Origin: Escherichia phage KIT03
Direction: 5' to 3' (one strand)
Sequence record: AP018932
DNA length: 64,000 nucleotides
Positions 1,274-55,501 of this stretch are shown in pieces. Both the position numbers and the translations under genes were made by a program. Positions within the stretch are counted from its first letter, which is position 1. Every line of letters starts with the position of its first letter. The notes under the pieces were generated by a model. That model searched no databases and was not told the DNA's origin. It worked only from the letters and a program-made list of their open reading frames with translations.

Positions 1274-2557
1274 ATGGCTAAAATCAACGAACTTCTGCGC
1301 GAATCAACCACAACGAATAGCAACTCAATCGGTCGCCCAAATCTCGTTGCTTTGACTCGCGCTACCACTAAATTAATATATTCTGACATTGTAGCAACGC
1401 AAAGAACTAATCAACCTGTTGCTGCTTTTTATGGTATCAAATACCTTAACCCAGACAACGAATTTACATTTAAAACTGGTGCTACTTACGCTGGCGAAGC
1501 TGGATATGTAGACCGAGAAAAAATCACAGAATTAACAGAAGAGTCTAAATTAACTCTCAATAAAGGCGATTTATTCAAATATAATAATATCGTTTATAAA
1601 GTATTAGAAGATACACCATTTGCTGATATTGAAGAAAGCGATTTAGAATTAGCTCTTCAGATTGCAATTGTTCTTTTAAAGGTTCGTCTATTTTCTGACG
1701 CAGCGTCAACAAGCAAATTTGAAAGCTCTGATAGTGAAATTGCGGATGCTAGATTCCAGATTAATAAATGGCAAACCGCAGTTAAATCTCGCAAACTTAA
1801 AACTGGTATCACAGTTGAATTAGCACAAGATTTAGAAGCAAACGGATTCGATGCTCCTAATTTCTTAGAAGATTTGCTTGCAACCGAAATGGCAGATGAA
1901 ATCAATAAAGATATTCTGCAGTCTTTGATTACAGTATCAAAACGTTATAAAGTTACAGGAATTACTGATACTGGATTCATTGATTTGAGTTATGCATCTG
2001 CACCTGAAGCTGGTCGTTCATTATACCGAATGGTATGTGAAATGGTTTCGCATATCCAAAAAGAATCAACTTATACAGCAACGTTCTGTGTTGCTTCTGC
2101 TCGTGCCGCTGCGATTCTTGCTGCATCAGGTTGGTTAAAACATAAACCAGAAGATGATAAATATCTTTCACAGAATGCCTACGGGTTCTTAGCTAATGGT
2201 TTACCGCTTTATTGCGATACTAACAGCCCATTAGATTATGTAATCGTTGGCGTAGTAGAAAATATCGGTGAAAAAGAAATTGTTGGATCAATTTTCTATG
2301 CTCCGTATACAGAAGGTCTCGACTTAGATGACCCTGAACATGTAGGTGCATTTAAAGTTGTGGTTGATCCAGAAAGCTTACAACCGTCTATCGGTTTATT
2401 AGTTAGATATGCTTTATCTGCAAATCCTTACACCGTAGCAAAAGATGAAAAAGAAGCAAGAGTAATTGATGGTGGAGACATGGATAAAATGGCGGGTCGT
2501 TCAGATTTGTCCGTTTTATTAGGTGTTAAGCTACCAAAAATTATCATTGATGAATAA
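1274..2557 (+). CDS. 24: head vertex protein gp24
   Basis: 427-aa ORF, gp23 paralog, position right after gene 23. Confidence 0.95.
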   Translation: MAKINELLRESTTTNSNSIGRPNLVALTRATTKLIYSDIVATQRTNQPVAAFYGIKYLNPDNEFTFKTGATYAGEAGYVDREKITELTEESKLTLNKGDLFKYNNIVYKVLEDTPFADIEESDLELALQIAIVLLKVRLFSDAASTSKFESSDSEIADARFQINKWQTAVKSRKLKTGITVELAQDLEANGFDAPNFLEDLLATEMADEINKDILQSLITVSKRYKVTGITDTGFIDLSYASAPEAGRSLYRMVCEMVSHIQKESTYTATFCVASARAAAILAASGWLKHKPEDDKYLSQNAYGFLANGLPLYCDTNSPLDYVIVGVVENIGEKEIVGSIFYAPYTEGLDLDDPEHVGAFKVVVDPESLQPSIGLLVRYALSANPYTVAKDEKEARVIDGGDMDKMAGRSDLSVLLGVKLPKIIIDE

Positions 2558-2562
2558 AACAA

Positions 2563-2588
2563 AGGGACCGAAAGGTCCCTTTTTATTT
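2563..2588. terminator. bidirectional hairpin terminator between gene 24 (+) and rnlB (-)
   Basis: GGGACC-GAAA-GGTCCC stem-loop flanked by T-runs on both strands. Confidence 0.65.
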
Positions 2589-3591
2589 AGCTCACCAACT
2601 CAATCCAAGCCGGACGAAGTACATCTTGTACCATTTTAACTAATTCCTTTTTAACCAAAGAAGGATTATCCGCTTGAGTTAGAGTAATACCTTCACGAGA
2701 AGTTTCTTCCAAAATATCTTGAACAGTTAATCCCATCACCTTTCCAAAATCTTTTGGACCAATTTCGCCAATTTTGGAAATAACGTTATTTACTCGGTTC
2801 AATGTAACATAACAAGCTAAAATTCCAACCAATTTGTTATCAGCTTCTGACAATTCAACTTTAGCTTTAATAGGCTTATCAGACTTTTTCTTTTCACTAA
2901 ATTTAGAATTCTTGCATTTGATGGCCACACGATTGCGATTAGGCAGCCAAGAAGGATAACAAGGTTTCAATACATATCCTTCAGCAGTAAATACTTCGCC
3001 TTTTGCTTCGGCATTCCAAACACATTTATTTGCATCAACTAATCCAGCATGGTCTACTGTAAAATTATAATCTTGGACGACAGAATCTAAATCATTTGGC
3101 AATTTAATAAGCTCTTCAAATTTACCGCGACCTAAAAGTGGAGCCATTTTAAATTTAAATGTATTACAGAATGATTCCATCATATAATCATCGACATAAG
3201 TCACATCACCACTTTCTGTAGTGACAATAATGTCAAATACATAAAAATCTTTATCACCATAATCAACATTCTTCTGAATGCCAGGTCCAGCGAATTCGCC
3301 AAAGACTTGATAAGATACAACCGCTGAAGTTTCCATAATATCTTGTACTGCTTTAATGGAATCAGCGTAATTCTTTAGAATAATTTCATACCCAAAGAAA
3401 TCTTCAGCAGGAATAATCGGTCCAGTACGTTTAGCGTAAGTTACTTTATCACGCTCAATAATCAATGAGAAATTTGTGCCGTGAATCTTTTCACGAGCTA
3501 CCCATTCGCCGCCAGTCAATCCTAAACTGTAAAGTTTTTCAATGAACTTAGAATTGTAATGATTTTCAAGACTGCTATACTTTTTAAACAT
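2587..3591 (-). CDS. rnlB: RNA ligase 2 (Rnl2)
   Basis: 334-aa ORF; N-terminus contains the nucleotidyltransferase lysine motif (KIHGTN). Confidence 0.93.
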
Positions 3592-3600
3592 AATTAATCC

Positions 3601-3879
3601 TCAAAATGTAATTTCTAACCAATCACCATCACGCTGATCACTATTGACTTTAAAGCTGAATCCTTCTTTTCTCAGCCAATCACCAATTTCTTCAGTAATC
3701 AATTTATCGCGAGCAGTACAATAATAACTAAAATATGTTTTACCTTGTTCAGCTGCTTTATTAGCAAGTTCTGAAAAATCTTTAATAAAACACTCTAGCT
3801 TAAACTGTTTACTTTTTAATGCTTTTTCGCGTAATTGATTAGCAAAAGATTCATTTTCATAAAGATCATACTGTTCCAT
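3601..3879 (-). CDS. 24.2: hypothetical protein (24.2 position)
   Basis: 92-aa ORF in conserved position between rnlB and hoc. Confidence 0.7.
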   Translation of the reverse strand: MEQYDLYENESFANQLREKALKSKQFKLECFIKDFSELANKAAEQGKTYFSYYCTARDKLITEEIGDWLRKEGFSFKVNSDQRDGDWLEITF

Positions 3880-4081
3880 TTTTCACCTTTTTATTAATAT
3901 GTCTTTTTCTATAGACAACTTTTTCTCGAGTTTCAAATTTATTCTTAGCAGTCATAGCTCGAGCCCATAATACAGCCACTTCTTTCGCCTGTAAGTTTAA
4001 TTCACGAGCAATTTCAATGAATGACTTTCCAGACTCATGAAGAGTAAACACCACAACCTCAGTTCTCATAATCAATCTCAT
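3866..4081 (-). CDS. 24.3: hypothetical small protein with helix-turn-helix-like segment (24.3 position)
   Basis: 71-aa ORF; segment GKSFIEIARELNLQAKEVAVLW looks like an HTH. Confidence 0.6.
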   Translation of the reverse strand: MRLIMRTEVVVFTLHESGKSFIEIARELNLQAKEVAVLWARAMTAKNKFETREKVVYRKRHINKKVKNGTV

Positions 4082-4136
4082 GTTATCGAGTTGGTGCCAT
4101 TATATACATCGTTTTCTGACTATGTTTTGTGTGCTT

Positions 4137-4164
4137 TCAAAATGAAGAAAGGGGCCGAAGCCCC
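4137..4164 (-). terminator. hairpin terminator downstream of hoc
   Basis: GGGGC-UUCG-GCCCC on the - strand followed by U-rich tract. Confidence 0.6.
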
Positions 4165-4170
4165 TTACGA

Positions 4171-5301
4171 TTATGGATAAGTATAGATGATACCATTTTC
4201 TAAAGCAGTTTTATGAATGATGTATCCATTACGTGATTCTTGAACATCAACTTCTGGATAGTCTTTCATCATCTTCTGAAGAGTGTAACGATGCAGGTAA
4301 TATTTACTATCTGGATCGTCAGTTTTCCAATCTTTACCTTCTTCAGTCATTTTTTGGATTTCATCCATAACCCACCAACCGCACCAGATGTAAGCTGAAG
4401 TACGGTGTGGAAGAGGATGAACATAAGGCAATTCACCTTCTGGTTCCGGAGCAACTTTATCAGTCACTTGAACTTGACCTGTTGTTTTAGCTGTTTTGCT
4501 ATCATAATCAGTTGCTGCAACGACAGCAGTAACTTCAATAGTTTGACTTCCAACAGATGAGGTATCGACAGTATATACGTTAGTTGACCCTTCTACAGGA
4601 GAAGAATCTTTCTTCCACGAGTAAGTAATTTGTGCTTCTTCTGGAGCATCCGTAACATTAGCCGTAAATGTAGCCGAAGCATCTTGCTGAACGTTAATAG
4701 AAGGAGGAGTCAATGTAACCTGTGGATTCATTGTCTTCTTATTAACCGTTAATGATACTTCATTCGAAGTAACTTCCTTTTCATTGTAATTTTCAGCAGT
4801 TACTTGGGCTACGCATTTAATTCTTTTTACTCCACTTGTAGTTGGAGTATAGCTAAATGTAGAGTTAGTTTCTCCACCAACTTGTGAATCATCTACATAC
4901 CACTGATACGTAGCAGATGCGCCTGATGGCTGCGAAGCCAAAGCAGCGGTAAATTTAACAGCTGTTCCAATCACTCCAGCCGCAGGACTAGCAGGAGTTA
5001 CGGCTAAGGTAGTCGTCTGTGTCTTATTTTTAACTGTGATAGTTGTTGTCGCTTCAGCCGTTTCCGGGCCTCCTTCAGAAAGTGTATTTGTTGCAACTAC
5101 TTTAATAGTCTTTTGACCAGCAGGACCTTTTAATACATAATCAAAAGTTGCTTCAGACCCATCTTGTGGAGCATTATCTACACTCCAAGCATAAGTAATA
5201 GTTCCACCTCCAGTTTCACCACTGGGTGCAGCAGTAAACTGCTTAGTCTCATCTATAACTCCAGTAGGTGTTTTAGGAGTTATATCAACTGTAAAAGCCA
5301 T
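4171..5301 (-). CDS. hoc: highly immunogenic outer capsid protein Hoc (Ig-like domains)
   Basis: 376-aa ORF with repeated Ig-like segments (TYSW/TYQWY motifs). Confidence 0.93.
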   Translation of the reverse strand: MAFTVDITPKTPTGVIDETKQFTAAPSGETGGGTITYAWSVDNAPQDGSEATFDYVLKGPAGQKTIKVVATNTLSEGGPETAEATTTITVKNKTQTTTLAVTPASPAAGVIGTAVKFTAALASQPSGASATYQWYVDDSQVGGETNSTFSYTPTTSGVKRIKCVAQVTAENYNEKEVTSNEVSLTVNKKTMNPQVTLTPPSINVQQDASATFTANVTDAPEEAQITYSWKKDSSPVEGSTNVYTVDTSSVGSQTIEVTAVVAATDYDSKTAKTTGQVQVTDKVAPEPEGELPYVHPLPHRTSAYIWCGWWVMDEIQKMTEEGKDWKTDDPDSKYYLHRYTLQKMMKDYPEVDVQESRNGYIIHKTALENGIIYTYP

Positions 5302-5310
5302 AAGTTATCC

Positions 5311-5991
5311 TTATTTTAATGTTACGAAAGAAGAATTACGTGTTTCACGAATTAGAACTGATCCGTCACGGTTAATGTAGTAAATTAAGCTAAACAGAGT
5401 TTGATGTGCCGACGCGTGTTCAAAACTAGTTGGGTGAGATTTCCAATCCGGAGTTTCAGCAATCCATTGGTAAATCCACCAAGGAACAGTACAGAATCCT
5501 GGATTTTTTCCAATCAACTGAAGATTCGGGCTAAAGTTTTCCGGAAGAGTAAATACAGACGGCTTTTCAGATTCAATAATCTCAGCTACAGCCTGTTCGA
5601 ATTTTTCTTCAACAAAAGGAGTATCTTCAATCAAAACATCGGTATTTTCAGGAATTTTATCCGTTTCTACTACTTCAATTTTAATATCAGATTTAACTGG
5701 AGAATCAATCAGAAGTGCTGCTTCTGGATTAACTTCTTCATCGTCATATTTTAATCCCTCTGCAGCATCAGCAGCATCAATTAAGTCTTTAATAGATAAC
5801 CCATCAGTCTCTGGCATAGGTTCACTAGCGAGCTTCTGGAGGGCTTCTTCAATATCAACAACGATATTATCAAAAGATTTATTCTTTTTGACCTTTATAC
5901 CAAACTGTTCAGCATATTCAGCTAATTTAGCTTTAGCTTCTTTATTATCATCAAGAGCCTTCAGCTCTGCAATATAATCTTTATCTATCAT
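5311..5991 (-). CDS. inh: inhibitor of prohead protease (Inh)
   Basis: 226-aa ORF adjacent to hoc. Confidence 0.85.
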   Translation of the reverse strand: MIDKDYIAELKALDDNKEAKAKLAEYAEQFGIKVKKNKSFDNIVVDIEEALQKLASEPMPETDGLSIKDLIDAADAAEGLKYDDEEVNPEAALLIDSPVKSDIKIEVVETDKIPENTDVLIEDTPFVEEKFEQAVAEIIESEKPSVFTLPENFSPNLQLIGKNPGFCTVPWWIYQWIAETPDWKSHPTSFEHASAHQTLFSLIYYINRDGSVLIRETRNSSFVTLK

Positions 5992-48817: not shown

Positions 48818-49933
48818 ATGGAAAAATTTATGGCAGAGTTTGGACAAGGATATGTCCAAACGCCATTTTTATCGGAAAGCAATTCAGTAAGATATAAAAT
48901 AAGTATAGCGGGTTCTTGCCCGCTTTCTACCGCAGGACCATACGTTAAATTTCAAGATAATCCTGTAGGAAGTCAAACATTTAGTGCAGGTCTTCATTTA
49001 AGAGTTTTTGACCCTTCTACAGGAGCATTGGTTGATAGTAAGTCATATGTTTTTTCTACTTCAAATGATACAACATCTGCTGCCTTTGTTAGTTTCATGA
49101 ATTCTTTTTCAAGCAATAGACTTGTTGCCATATTAACTAGCGGAAAGGTTAATTTTCCTCCTGAAGTAGTATCTTGGTTAAGAACGGCAGGAACATCTGC
49201 TTTTCCATCTGATTCTTTATTGTCAAGATTTGACGTATCATATGCTGCCTTTTACACTTCTTCTAAAAGAGCTATCGCACTAGAGCATGTTAAACTGAGT
49301 AACAGAAAAAGCACAGATGACTATCAAACTATATTAGATGTAGTATTTGATAGTTTAGAAGATGTTGGAGCGACAGGATTTCCTAAAAGAACATATGAAA
49401 GCGTTGAGCAATTTATGTCAGCTGTTGGTGGAACTAATAACGAAATTGCACGTCTACCTACAGCATCTGCAATAAGTAAACTTTCTGACTATAATTTAAT
49501 TCCTGGAGATGTTCTTTATCTTAAAGCACAACTATATGCTGATGCTGATTTATTAGCGTTGGGAACTACTAATATTTCAATTCGTTTTTATAATGCGTCG
49601 AATGGATATATTTCCTCGACACAAGCTGAGTTTACTGGACAGGCTGGGTCTTGGGAATTAAAAGAAGATTATGTAGTTGTTCCAGAAAATGCAGTTGGAT
49701 TTACGATATACGCACAGAGAACTGCACAAGCGGGTCAAGGCGGTATGAGAAATTTAAGCTTTTCTGAAGTGTCAAGAAATGGTGGCATTTCAAAACCTGC
49801 TGAGTTTGGCGTCAATGGTATTCGAGTTAATTATATCTGTGAATCTGCTTCACCTCCGGATATAATGGTACTTCCTACGCAAGCATCGTCTAAAACTGGT
49901 AAAGTGTTTGGACAGGAATTTAGAGAAGTTTAA
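48818..49933 (+). CDS. 35: long tail fibre hinge protein gp35
   Basis: 371-aa ORF. Confidence 0.93.
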   Translation: MEKFMAEFGQGYVQTPFLSESNSVRYKISIAGSCPLSTAGPYVKFQDNPVGSQTFSAGLHLRVFDPSTGALVDSKSYVFSTSNDTTSAAFVSFMNSFSSNRLVAILTSGKVNFPPEVVSWLRTAGTSAFPSDSLLSRFDVSYAAFYTSSKRAIALEHVKLSNRKSTDDYQTILDVVFDSLEDVGATGFPKRTYESVEQFMSAVGGTNNEIARLPTASAISKLSDYNLIPGDVLYLKAQLYADADLLALGTTNISIRFYNASNGYISSTQAEFTGQAGSWELKEDYVVVPENAVGFTIYAQRTAQAGQGGMRNLSFSEVSRNGGISKPAEFGVNGIRVNYICESASPPDIMVLPTQASSKTGKVFGQEFREV

Positions 49934-49995: not shown

Positions 49996-50652
49996 ATGGC
50001 TGATTTAAAAGTAGGTTCAACAACTGGAGGCTCTGTCATTTGGCATCAAGGAAATTTTCCATTGAATCCAGCCGGTGACGATGTACTCTATAAATCATTT
50101 AAAATATATTCAGAATATAATAAACCACAAGCAACTGATAACGATTTCGTTTCTAAAGCTAATGGTGGTACTTATTTAAATAAAGTAATTTTTAATAAAG
50201 GAATGACTGTTCCTGGTACTGGGTCAGGTGACAACGGTATTTTTGCCGGTCCTGGTGATAATGCCACATATGATACTACAAATATGGATATTGTTTCATG
50301 GTATGGTATCGGCTTTAAATCATCACAAGGGGCAGCAGGTAGAACTGTAGTAATTAACACACGAAACGGAGATATTAGCTCAAAGGGTGTAATTGAAGCA
50401 TCACAAATACGCGCAACTTCGTTATCACCAGTAAATAATTATGACCTTACGAGAAAAGATTATGTTGATGGAGCAATAAATATTGTTACAACAAATGCAA
50501 ACTCTAGAGTATTACGCTCTGGAGACACTATGATAGGAAATTTAACTGCGCCAAACCTTTTTTCACAGAATCCTGCATCTCAACCCTCGCATGTTCCGCG
50601 ATTTGACCAAATCGTAATTAAGGATTCTGTTCAAGATTTCGGCTATTATTAA
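49996..50652 (+). CDS. 36: long tail fibre distal connector gp36
   Basis: 218-aa ORF. Confidence 0.93.
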   Translation: MADLKVGSTTGGSVIWHQGNFPLNPAGDDVLYKSFKIYSEYNKPQATDNDFVSKANGGTYLNKVIFNKGMTVPGTGSGDNGIFAGPGDNATYDTTNMDIVSWYGIGFKSSQGAAGRTVVINTRNGDISSKGVIEASQIRATSLSPVNNYDLTRKDYVDGAINIVTTNANSRVLRSGDTMIGNLTAPNLFSQNPASQPSHVPRFDQIVIKDSVQDFGYY

Positions 50653-50660
50653 GAGGACTT

Positions 50661-53600
50661 ATGGCTACTTTAAAACAAATACAATTTAAAAGAAGCAAAA
50701 CGGCAGGTCAACGTCCAGCTGCTTCAGTATTAGCCGAAGGTGAATTGGCTATAAACTTAAAAGACCGTGTACTTTTTACTAAAGATGACCAAGGAAATAT
50801 TATTGATTTAGGTTTTGCTAAAGGCGGTAGTATTGACGGGAATGTTATTCATAAAGGCAATTATAACCAAACTGGCGATTATACTTTAAACGGTACATTC
50901 ACCCAGACTGGTAATTTTAATTTAACCGGTATTGCTCGAGTAACTCGTGATATTATTGCTGCTGGGCAGATTATGACTGAAGGCGGAGAACTTATTACAA
51001 AAAGTTCAGGAACGGCACACGTTCGTTTTCATGATTCCGCCGACCGTGAACGCGGTATTATTTTTTCTCCTGCTAATGACGGTTTAACTACACAAGTAAT
51101 TAACATCAGAGTTCAAGATTACAAAGCCGGTTCAGAAAGCACTTTCGCTTTTAATGGAAATGGTTTGTTTTCTTCACCAGAAGTTTTTGGGTGGAAATCT
51201 GTATCAACTCCGGTAATTTATACCAATAAAGTTATCACCAATAAAAAAGTTAAAGATGATTATGACATCTATTCGATGGCAGATAATGTTCCATTATCTG
51301 AAAGCACTACTGCTATTAATCATCTTCGTGTTATGCGTAATGCAGTCGGTTCTGGTATTTTCCATGAAGTTAAAGATAATGATGGAATAACATGGTATAG
51401 TGGAGATGGATTAGATGCTTATCTGTGGTCATTTACCTGGAGCGGCGGAATTAAATCAAGTCACTCAATTTCCATCGGTTTAACACCCGGACCTAAGGAT
51501 TACTCAATATTAGGACCGTCTAGTATCGCTTTAGGAGATAATGATACTGGATTTAAATGGCATCAAGACGGATATTATTTCAGTGTTAATAATGGCACAA
51601 AAACGTTTTTATTTAGCCCTAGCGAAACAACTAGCCTAAGAAAATTTGTAGCTGGATATTCTACTAATGGAACCGATTTAACTACTCCTCCGACTGAAAA
51701 CTATGCTCTTGCTACTGTCGTGACATATCATGACAATAACGCGTTTGGAGATGGTCAGACTCTTTTGGGGTATTATCAAGGCGGTAGATATCACCATTAC
51801 TTTCGCGGAAGAGGAACAACTAATATTAATACTGCTGGAGGGTTATTAGTTACTCCTGGTAATATTGATGTTATTGGCGGTTCTGTTAATATCGATGGTA
51901 GAAATAATGCTTCTACAGCTCTGTTTAAAGGTAACACAACAGGTAGTAGTTCTGTGGATAACATGACAATTTCTGTGTGGGGTAATACATTTACTAATCC
52001 AAGCGAAGGTAATCGCAAAAATGTCATGGAAATTTCCGATGCAACTAGCTGGATGAGCTATATTCAAAGACTTACTACTGGTGAAGTAGAAATGAACGTT
52101 AACGGTTCATTTGAATCATCTGGTGTTACTGCTGGAAATAGAGGAGTTCACACAACAGGCGAAATTTCATCTGGAGCAGTGAATGCTCTTCGCATTTGGA
52201 ATGCAGATTATGGAGCCATTTTTAGACGTTCAGAAGGTAGTCTTCATATTATTCCAACTGCTTATGGTGAAGGCAAAAATGGTGATATCGGTCCACTTCG
52301 TCCATTTAGTATTGCTTTGGATACTGGTAAGGTTGTTATTCCAGATTTAGAATCAAGTTATAACACGTTTGCTGCAAATGGCTACATTAAATTTGCTGGT
52401 CATGGCGCGGGTGCAGGTGGTTATGATATTCAGTATTCACAAGCTGCTCCTATTTTCCAAGAAATCGATGATGCTGCTGTAAGCAAATATTATCCTATTG
52501 TTAAACAGAAGTTTTTAAATGGTAAAGCTGTCTGGTCTTTGGGTACTGAAATTAATTCTGGTACATTTGTTTTACATCATTTGAAAGAAGATGGTTCACA
52601 AGGCCATACATCAAGATTTAATGCTGATGGTACAGTTAACTTCCCGGATAACGTTCAGGTCGGCGGCGGTGAAGCTACTATTGCTCGTAATGGTAATATC
52701 TTCTCTGATATTTGGAAAACATTTACTTCTGCCGGAGATACTACAAATATTCGCGATGCAATAGCTACTCGTGTTGCCAAAGAAGGCGATACGATGACTG
52801 GCAAATTAATCGTTAAAAGAGGCTCTGACGCTATTAACATTGCTGCCGATGAAAATGATTCTTGCTATTTACTTGGAACATCGGGTGGAGCGAATTCATG
52901 GTACATCGGTAAAGGAGGAGCAGATGACACTGCTTCATTTTATAATTTCAAAACTACCGCAGGAATTACTCTTAATAGTGTTGGTGATATTGATTTTAAC
53001 GTTAAAAATCAAGCTACTGCAGCTTCATTAAATTTTTATCGTTTATATTTAAATGGAAGACAGTGGACAGCTACACAAGGACATGGATATAATAATCAAT
53101 GGCAAACAGAAGCCCCATTCTTCGTTGACTTTGGCGAATCTGTTCCGAAAGATAGTTATATGCCTATAATTAAAGGAAGAAGCCAAATCATTAACGAAGG
53201 ATATGCCACAAAGGCAGATTTTGGTATTATTCGATTAGGCGGAAATGCTACTTGGGGAAATGCAGTAATTCGTGTTGGTTCTGCGGAAAGCGGAGATAGC
53301 AGTCATCCTAATGCAATATTTGTGTTTCAGGCTAATGGTGATTTTAAAGCTCCGGCTGGCCTTCGTGCTGGTGTTAACTTGGGCGTCGGCACAATTCCAG
53401 TATGGGGCGGAGCATCTATCGCCATCGGGGATGATGATACCGGTTTAGTTCATGGCGGTGATGGTCGAATTAATATGTATGCTAACTCGCAGCATATAGC
53501 ATCATGGGGCACAATGTATCAATCTCATCCAGGCCTTTGGGATTCGAATGGAGCTTTTTGGACAGAAGTTGGCAAAGCAATTATTTCTCATGGCCATTTA

Positions 53601-53987
53601 GTTCAGGCGAATGACAGCTATTCAACGTATGTCCGCGATGTTTATGTCCGCTCTGATATTCGTGTTAAAAAGGATCTAGTTAAATTTGAAAATGCTTCTG
53701 AGAAGCTTTCAAAAATTAATGGTTACACTTATATGCAGAAGCGAGGCCTAGATGAAGAAGGTAATCAGAAATGGGAACCAAACGCTGGGTTAATTGCTCA
53801 AGAAGTTCAAGTTATTTTACCTGAATTGGTTGAAGGCGATCAGGATAGTGAAGCTTTACTTCGTTTGAACTATAACGGTGTAATTGGTTTAAATACAGCT
53901 GCAATCAATGAGCATACTGCAGAAATTGCAGAACTTAAGTCAGAGATTGAAGAGCTTAAAAAATTAGTTAAATCATTGTTAAAATAA
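50661..53987 (+). CDS. 37: long tail fibre distal subunit gp37 with C-terminal intramolecular chaperone (self-cleaving) domain
   Basis: 1108-aa ORF; C-terminus carries an SDIRVKKD...coiled-coil region typical of endosialidase-type chaperone domains. Confidence 0.93.
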
Positions 53988-54018
53988 AATGAGGGGCTTC
54001 GGCCCCTTGGAGGTTTAT

Positions 54019-54813
54019 ATGGCAGTTGAAGGACCGTGGGTAGGATGGTCTGCGAGGGTACAAACTGGAGACCCTTGGATGGGTGGTGCCGCGCTGAGAT
54101 TGAGAATGGGAATTCCGTTTTGGATGAGTAATATGATAGGTCGATCTGTTGAAGTAATTCACACCCTTGGAGCGGACCATAACTTTAATGGTCAATGGTT
54201 CCGAGATAGATGTTTTGAGGCAGGTAGTGCACCTATAGTGTTTAATATTACCGGAAATTTGGTATCATATTCTAGAGACGTTCCTTTATTCTTCATGTAC
54301 GGAGATACACCTAATGAATATGTTCAGTTGAATATTGGTGGCGGCGTCCATATGTGGGGTAGAGGTGGACAAGGTGGATGGACTCATTCCGGCGGAGATG
54401 GTAATGGTCAACAAGGTGGTCATTGTATTCAAAATGACATCGGTGGACGATTAAGAATTAATAACGGTGGAGTAATTTGTGGTGGAGGTGGAGGTGGAGG
54501 TGGTATCGCTTATCGTCCTCACTCTGGTGCAAATTGGCAAGATATTGGTGGTGGTGGAGGAAGACCATTTGGCCCAGGAGGAGGCGGAGGTTATTCCGGC
54601 GGCGCAGCTTCTTATGATGGCCCAGGAGGTGGTTATAATTATGGTAATGCTCACTCTGGCCAGGGTGGTGATGCTGGCGCAAATGGACAAAATGCCTGGT
54701 ATGATGGCGGTAAAGTTCTAAAAGTTGGAGCTGGTGGCGCTGCCGGATATGCTGTTATAGGATCAGCTCCAACATGGCAAAATGTTGGAGTAATATATGG
54801 TCCAAGGGTATAA
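54019..54813 (+). CDS. 38: T2-type tail fibre adhesin gp38 (glycine-rich motifs separating variable segments)
   Basis: start [10 protein letters not shown] with GGAGG RBS; poly-Gly runs (GGGGGGGG, GGGGG) interleaved with variable segments. Confidence 0.88.
54481..54504 (+). repeat. (GGTGGA)n simple-sequence repeat encoding poly-glycine in gp38
   Basis: ggtggaggtggaggtggaggtggt. Confidence 0.8.
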
Positions 54814-54844: not shown

Positions 54845-55501
54845 ATGGCAGCACCTAGAATATCATTTTCGCCCTCTGATATTCTATTTGGTGTTCTAGA
54901 TCGCTTGTTCAAAGATAACGCTACCGGGAAAGTTCTTGCTTCCCGGGTAGCTGTCGTAATTCTTTTGTTTATGATGGCGATTGTTTGGTATAGGGGAGAT
55001 AGTTTCTTTGAGTACTATAAGCAATCAAAGTATGAAACATACAGTGAAATTATTGAAAAGGAAAGAAATGCACGCTTTGAATCTGTCGCCCTGGAACAAC
55101 TCCAGATAGTTCACATATCATCTGAGGCAGACTTTAGTGCGGTGTATTCTTTCCGCCCTAAAAACTTAAACTATTTTGTCGATATTATAGCATATGAAGG
55201 AAAATTACCTTCAACAATAAGTGAAAAATCACTTGGAGGATATCCTGTTGATAAAACTATGGATGAATATGCAGTTCATTTAAATGGACGTCATTATTAT
55301 TCCAACTCAAAATTTGCTTTTTTACCAACTAAAAAGCCTACTCCCGAAATAAACTACATGTACAGTTGTCCATATTTTAATTTGGATAATATCTATGCTG
55401 GAACGATAACCATGTACTGGTATAGAAATGATCATATAAGTAATGACCGCCTTGAATCAATATGCGCCCAGGCGGCCAGAATATTAGGAAGGGCTAAATA
55501 A
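54845..55501 (+). CDS. t: holin T
   Basis: 218-aa ORF recognised as T4 holin; single TM segment. Confidence 0.96.
   Translation: MAAPRISFSPSDILFGVLDRLFKDNATGKVLASRVAVVILLFMMAIVWYRGDSFFEYYKQSKYETYSEIIEKERNARFESVALEQLQIVHISSEADFSAVYSFRPKNLNYFVDIIAYEGKLPSTISEKSLGGYPVDKTMDEYAVHLNGRHYYSNSKFAFLPTKKPTPEINYMYSCPYFNLDNIYAGTITMYWYRNDHISNDRLESICAQAARILGRAK

Follow-up and report, generated by a model that had tools for sequence, protein, structure and literature searches.

A predicted endosialidase-type intramolecular chaperone at the C-terminus of the distal long tail fibre protein gp37 of Escherichia phage KIT03

The chaperone of the K1F endosialidase endoNF (Schwarzer 2007, Schulz 2010) is the founder of the MEROPS/Pfam family Peptidase_S74. 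Autoproteolytic release of intramolecular chaperones (IMCs) has been demonstrated for K1F endoNF, for gp37 of phage S16 and for T5 pb1 (PMC7917993, PMC4690869). In T5 pb1 the Thr1263-Ser1264 bond is cut only after the trimer has folded, and the serine departs with the chaperone (PMC4690869). A lysine five residues further on activates the hydroxyl of the serine (Ser1264/Lys1269), and, once the beta-helix is correctly folded, a neighbouring subunit supplies the arginine that completes the site; Arg1250 of T5 serves as a folding sensor and contributes to the oxyanion hole, and an arginine sensor has also been described for K1F (PMC4690869). Replacement of the serine by alanine blocks cleavage, and uncleaved pb1 is non-functional in competition assays (PMC4690869). 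Both the T5 and the K1F chaperones contain a central trimeric coiled coil, which in T5 is flanked by an alpha/beta domain (PMC4690869).

Chaperones of this kind are also found on the long tail fibres of T-even-type phages. In S16 the last 113 residues of gp37 are autocleaved at DLNVS^SDRRIKK, which bares the docking surface for gp38 (PMC7917993), and the tryptophans of gp38 fit into pockets in the trimer's base, with one gp38 per gp37 trimer (PMC6851490). IMC autocleavage in S16 gp37 has been known since 2018 (PDB 6F45 construct; Dunne et al. 2018, Structure 26:1573). Proteolytic processing at the C-terminus of T2 gp37 was described as early as 1986 (Drexler, Riede & Henning 1986, J Mol Biol 191:267), and PMC3157838, citing this work, describes gp37 of T2 and T6 as cleaved and then capped by gp38. 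T4 is built differently: its gp37, the counterpart in both fibre subunit and gene position, folds with two separate chaperones, T4 gp38 and the g57 product (gp57A), T4 gp38 is absent from the virion, and the C-terminal domain of gp37 is itself the T4 adhesin.

Here we analyzed a stretch of 64,000 nucleotides from Escherichia phage KIT03 (AP018932), referred to as the window, and examined by computation the family to which the gp37 C-terminus belongs, its catalytic motif, its predicted fold, its place at the end of the protein and the genes around it. The tail fibre genes and the features discussed below are collected in Table 1; their order, 35-36-37-38-t, is that of T2. KIT03 is a Tequatrovirus, and between 52800 and 54100 its DNA shows 98.8-98.9% identity to two other members of the genus, Escherichia phage wV7 and O157 typing phage 7, in whose records the corresponding ORFs are annotated as gp35, gp36, gp37 and gp38. 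Upstream of the tip, in residues 449-551 and 729-773, gp37 matches the Pfam families Gp34_trimer (E=5e-8) and, below threshold, gp37_trimer; these matches reflect fibre-shaft modules common to the proximal and distal subunits.

Table 1. Positions of the gp37 features and neighbouring genes, numbered from the first letter of the window.
Feature	Position	Strand	Basis and remarks
gp35	48818..49933	+	T-even long-tail-fibre gene block
gp36	49996..50652	+	T-even long-tail-fibre gene block
gp37 precursor, distal long tail fibre subunit	50661..53987	+	ORF list; 1108 aa, 119.4 kDa; stop codon included
Predicted mature gp37	50661..53651	+	Residues 1-997, 106.9 kDa, ending ...RDVYVR; S16 and T5 sites aligned to DVYVR^SDIRVKK
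Distal tip of mature gp37	53406..53651	+	Residues ~916-997; phmmer to 6F45_A; S16 beta-helical tip, whose base docks gp38 (PMC6851490)
Predicted scissile bond R997-S998	53649..53654	+	S74 profile position 1 is S998; 3GUD begins SDERHK; S16 and T5 sites
Intramolecular chaperone (IMC, Peptidase_S74) domain	53652..53984	+	Residues 998-1108, 111 aa, 12.5 kDa; Pfam, 6F45 match, profile and fold
S998, predicted nucleophile	53652-53654	+	Start of chaperone domain
K1003, predicted general base of Ser-Lys dyad	53667..53669	+	S+5 spacing as in T5 Ser1264/Lys1269 (PMC4690869)
Long C-terminal alpha-helix, predicted trimeric coiled-coil core	53871..53981	+	Residues ~1071-1107, heptad-like; AlphaFold pLDDT about 87-96
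GGGGC-UUCG-GCCCC hairpin	53992..54007	+	In 31-nt gp37-gp38 spacer, 53988-54018; RNA fold and pattern scan
gp38 adhesin, T2/S16 type	54019..54813	+	264 aa, glycine-rich; Pfam GP38 E=1.3e-68, Gp38_N E=7.1e-19
t holin	54845..55501	+	Downstream of the gp38-type ORF
asiA		Opposite to tail-fibre block	Past t holin in gene list

Several lines of sequence evidence place an endosialidase-type chaperone of the Peptidase_S74 family at the end of gp37. The original prediction had proposed such a domain from the C-terminal peptide, which is indeed present in the frame given, within the plus-strand gp37 ORF. The HMM search it called for returned Peptidase_S74 (PF13884, "Chaperone of endosialidase") on residues 998-1057, covering profile positions 1-57 of 58 with S998 at position 1. 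The score on the last 129 residues was 49.9 bits (E=3.8e-13; gathering cut-off 22), and whole gp37 gave E=1.4e-11. PHROG tail-fibre families also match the C-terminal segment, with E-values down to 2e-54. The last 195 residues align over 193 residues with S16 gp37 (PDB 6F45_A, phmmer E=1.7e-44), placing SDIRVKK opposite SDRRIKK, and the segment directly upstream of the chaperone is homologous to the trimeric beta-helix tip of S16 gp37. A small profile reaches the autoprocessing (ICA) domain of MyRF (7DC3, 2e-9) and the tail fibre 8JOV (1e-8), with weaker matches to the GA-1 neck-appendage chaperone 3GUD and the T5 L-shaped fibre (E=0.04).

The domain occupies the extreme C-terminus, namely the last 111 of 1108 residues. 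This agrees with the predicted length of about 110, while the start proposed at 53600 has to be moved 52 nt (17 residues) downstream, to 53652. Relatives of the 111-residue domain were found by tblastn in 984 phage records; among the matches listed, most are annotated as tail fibre and come from Tequatrovirus-like, T5-like, Klebsiella, Vibrio and cyanophage genomes. In a large protein database, the 129-residue C-terminus returned 11 matches, mostly short, all of which carry PF13884. A phmmer search with the IMC as query, run over every ORF of 80 aa or more in the six frames of the window, together with an SD.R.K pattern scan, gave no second S74 domain, gp37 alone being matched.

The predicted structure is in line with this assignment. 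For the last 129 residues, AlphaFold gave a model with a mean pLDDT of 77 that exceeded 85 over most of the domain; it is a monomer model based on a shallow alignment of seven sequences, and residues 1-21 of the fragment, which include the scissile site, are of low confidence. The modelled elements (H33-38, E43-51, E57-64, H67-73 and H92-128 in fragment numbering) form a small alpha/beta module and a 37-residue helix. When the model was compared with the PDB using Foldseek, ranks 1-10 were all IMC structures, namely 7DC3 (E=1e-6), the K1F endosialidase chaperone 3GW6 and 3GUD; the overlap with 3GW6 is partial, with a TM-score of about 0.49 normalised to the query. In the model the gp37 C-terminus has an IMC fold, in which the alpha/beta module leads into a long helix that would form the core of a trimeric coiled coil.

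The SDxR motif named in the original prediction is found as S998-D-I-R-V-K1003, in which the lysine lies five residues after the serine. It is in register in the alignments with S16, MyRF, 8JOV and GA-1, the counterparts being SDRRIK in S16, SDERLK in 8JOV, SDERHK in GA-1 and ADLRAK, with Ala for Ser, in the MyRF chain 7DC3. The junction of T2 gp37 aligns as NVYIR-SDIRLK. At P1, KIT03 shares Arg with T2 and the fPS phages, where S16 has Ser and T5 has Thr. R993 and D994 are conserved with S16 (VRDVYVR vs CRDLNVS) and not with T2, so R993 was not equated with the sensor Arg1250 of T5. Because S16, T5 and K1F cut the bond before the conserved serine, mature gp37 should end at R997 and the serine should leave with the chaperone. 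By this homology, cleavage of the R997-S998 bond would yield a 997-residue mature fibre and a released 111-residue chaperone of 12.5 kDa. The mature end, placed near residue 996 in the original prediction, is therefore better put at R997, with the cut N-terminal to the serine.

A genuine S74 chaperone could also be cut after the serine, between S998 and D999, in which case mature gp37 would end at S998 and the mature end would shift by one residue. This type of cut has been modelled for phi29 (PMC4690869), and the wording of the original prediction, cleavage "at the serine", is compatible with a cut on either side. We consider it unlikely, as the cut reported for S16, the closest homologue, lies before the serine (PMC7917993), the serines of T5 and K1F are lost with the chaperone (PMC4690869), and the GA-1 chaperone chain 3GUD starts with SD. 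Another reading is that the junction of the wV7/PP01 lineage, which carries Arg at P1 and, relative to S16, about 11 extra residues in the tip, is processed differently, through another bond, a slower or conditional cut, or a chaperone with a second role such as regulating the loading of gp38. The data do not point that way, and we give this reading only a slim chance. The paper on gp38 of PP01, one of the closest relatives, contains no mention of cleavage of gp37.

It is very improbable that the domain aids trimerisation and then stays on the fibre, or that its removal depends on a separate protease from host or phage. The 1986 work on T2 spoke of "proteolytic processing" before self-cleavage was understood (PMC3157838), and this wording would suit a separate protease. 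However, both residues of the Ser-Lys dyad are intact and line up with those of family members proven to cleave themselves. Retention is also difficult to reconcile with the neighbouring gene: an uncleaved chaperone would block the surface where gp38 docks in S16, yet a gp38 with conserved tryptophans is encoded next, and T5 pb1 left uncleaved was non-functional in competition assays (PMC4690869). Finally, the similarity might be a chance or low-complexity effect of the coiled-coil tail, given that the last ~35 residues form a heptad-like low-complexity helix and that tblastn masked or stopped short of the last ~22 residues. The probability of this is next to nil: the Pfam match (998-1057) lies upstream of the coiled coil, E-values range from 1e-13 to 1e-44, and the significant or top-ranking fold matches are all IMC structures. 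Chance similarity was ruled out by the location of the Pfam match, the E-values and the profile and fold searches.

We therefore return to a gp37 precursor with a self-removing chaperone that is cut at R997-S998 and then capped by gp38, which is very probably the correct reading and upholds the original prediction in its essentials. Cleavage of KIT03 gp37, the exact bond, docking of gp38 only afterwards and the order of events would all follow by analogy with the described systems. The protein would be made as a precursor of 1108 residues, of which the last 111 (S998-K1108) would be the chaperone. Three chaperone domains would associate via their C-terminal coiled coil, and the chaperone trimer would nucleate in-register folding of the trimeric beta-helical tip from its C-terminal end. 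After correct folding of the trimer, the S998 hydroxyl, activated by K1003, would attack the R997-S998 bond of every chain, setting free the 12.5 kDa chaperone. The bared base of the gp37 trimer (...RDVYVR) would then be capped by one gp38, docking via the tryptophans of its N-terminal domain.

Comparison with the described systems places KIT03 nearest to S16. Both have a distal fibre subunit with a chaperone at the extreme C-terminus and an S16-type gp38 gene next to it, and the chaperones are of similar size (113 aa in S16 vs 111 aa) with SDRRIKK in S16 corresponding to SDIRVKK. Unlike S16 gp37, KIT03 gp37 has Arg rather than Ser at P1 and a tip insertion of about 11 residues, and the host and the hypervariable loops of gp38 also differ; we regard the differences in P1 residue and tip insertion as minor. 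The resemblance to T2 extends beyond gene order to the aligned junction motif and to the processed tip, which is described as gp38-capped in T2 (PMC3157838). Identity with T2 gp37 is about 39% over the last 195 aa, and the chaperone of T2, which by count comprises about 99 aa (S1243-1341), is shorter, as is its C-terminal helix. The N-terminal subtype of gp38 also differs from that of T2 (47% identity), in line with the incompatibility of T2 and PP01 gp37 and gp38 reported in the PP01 gp38 paper.

K1F endoNF (PDB 3GW6) shares the Pfam family, the fold match and the Ser-Lys dyad, and its chaperone is released after trimer folding, but its passenger is a tailspike glycosidase rather than a fibre and its chaperone is larger, with long tentacle hairpins. 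With T5 pb1 the likeness lies in the tail-fibre passenger, the S+5 spacing of the dyad, the central coiled coil and the cut, which in T5 falls before the serine (PMC4690869). The sequence similarity to T5 is weak (profile E=0.04), and cleaved T5 pb1 binds its receptor directly, without a gp38-like cap. The KIT03 fibre tip is of the T2/S16 kind, a self-chaperoned gp37 with a gp38 cap, and not of the T4 kind. In all, this is a standard member of the Peptidase_S74/IMC family in a standard T2/S16 tail-fibre setting, which is already known biology; it opens no new question. A self-chaperoned gp37 is ordinary among phages with gp38-capped fibre tips. For annotation, the functional virion gp37 should be residues 1-997 rather than the 1108-residue ORF product. 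Therefore, constructs for tip expression, gp38 swaps or chimeric host-range fibres must keep the chaperone and should expect cleavage.

The cap proposed in the original prediction is supported by the next gene, which encodes a gp38 of T2/S16 type, with the correction that the S16 cap is a single monomer on the trimer (PMC6851490). The Gp38_N profile (positions 1-40) covers residues 1-40, and the protein is 99% identical to wV7 gp38 and 47% to T2 gp38. W7, W20 and W35 at the N-terminus are invariant when this gp38 is aligned with those of T2 and wV7, and the protein also has poly-Gly motifs. A T2/S16-type tip is recognised by an adjacent gp38 with an N-terminal attachment domain and glycine-rich motifs, and both are found here.

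Some observations concern the gp37 tip itself. The insertion of ~11 residues relative to S16 lies just before the chaperone, in the segment 53490-53580 (residues ~944-975), which is rich in Trp, His and Gly. T2 gp37 lacks about 30 residues here. The segment might change the surface beside the gp38 docking site. Some of the phage records listed match only 53424-54100, at ~90-95% identity, a region that runs from the gp37 tip through the chaperone into the first part of gp38. Since these records match this region only, the three parts behave as a single exchangeable cassette, bounded on the left by the motif G-x-S-I-x-x-G-D-x-D-T-G (~53406-53444), which recurs within gp37 (~51510-51550) and is conserved in T2. 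Such a cassette agrees with the published proposal that recombination takes place between conserved motifs and that the C-terminus of gp37 and the N-terminus of gp38 fit each other like lock and key (PMC3157838).

A stand-alone chaperone ORF was also considered, as several of the database matches were 170-aa "tail fiber domain-containing proteins" on contigs of ~167 kb, and was ruled out in the single contig checked (L003). This contig of 167 kb is a phage genome deposited as part of an E. coli assembly (GCA_033877295.1). The protein annotated there at 5001-5513 corresponds to the gp37 tip plus chaperone, and an intact gp37 ORF of 1109 aa (2184..5513) spans the locus; the 170-aa protein is therefore an annotation artefact of an internal start and not a split gene.

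The ORF list starts gp38 at ATG 53989 (274 aa). We rejected this start in favour of ATG 54019 (264 aa, MAVEGPW...), located 5 nt after GGAGG, because the alignment with wV7 and T2 gp38 and the Gp38_N match (1-40) begin there, while 53989 lies inside the hairpin region upstream of GGAGG. The spacer hairpin is perfect, with a C(UUCG)G tetraloop and an 8-bp stem in the RNA fold when flanking A-U pairs are counted, and directly precedes the gp38 Shine-Dalgarno sequence GGAGG (54009-54013). Read on the minus strand, the hairpin has a T-rich run after it and a terminator-like score. Such UUCG hairpins are known from the intergenic regions of T4, and this one could stabilise the mRNA, tune translation of gp38 or terminate antisense transcription.
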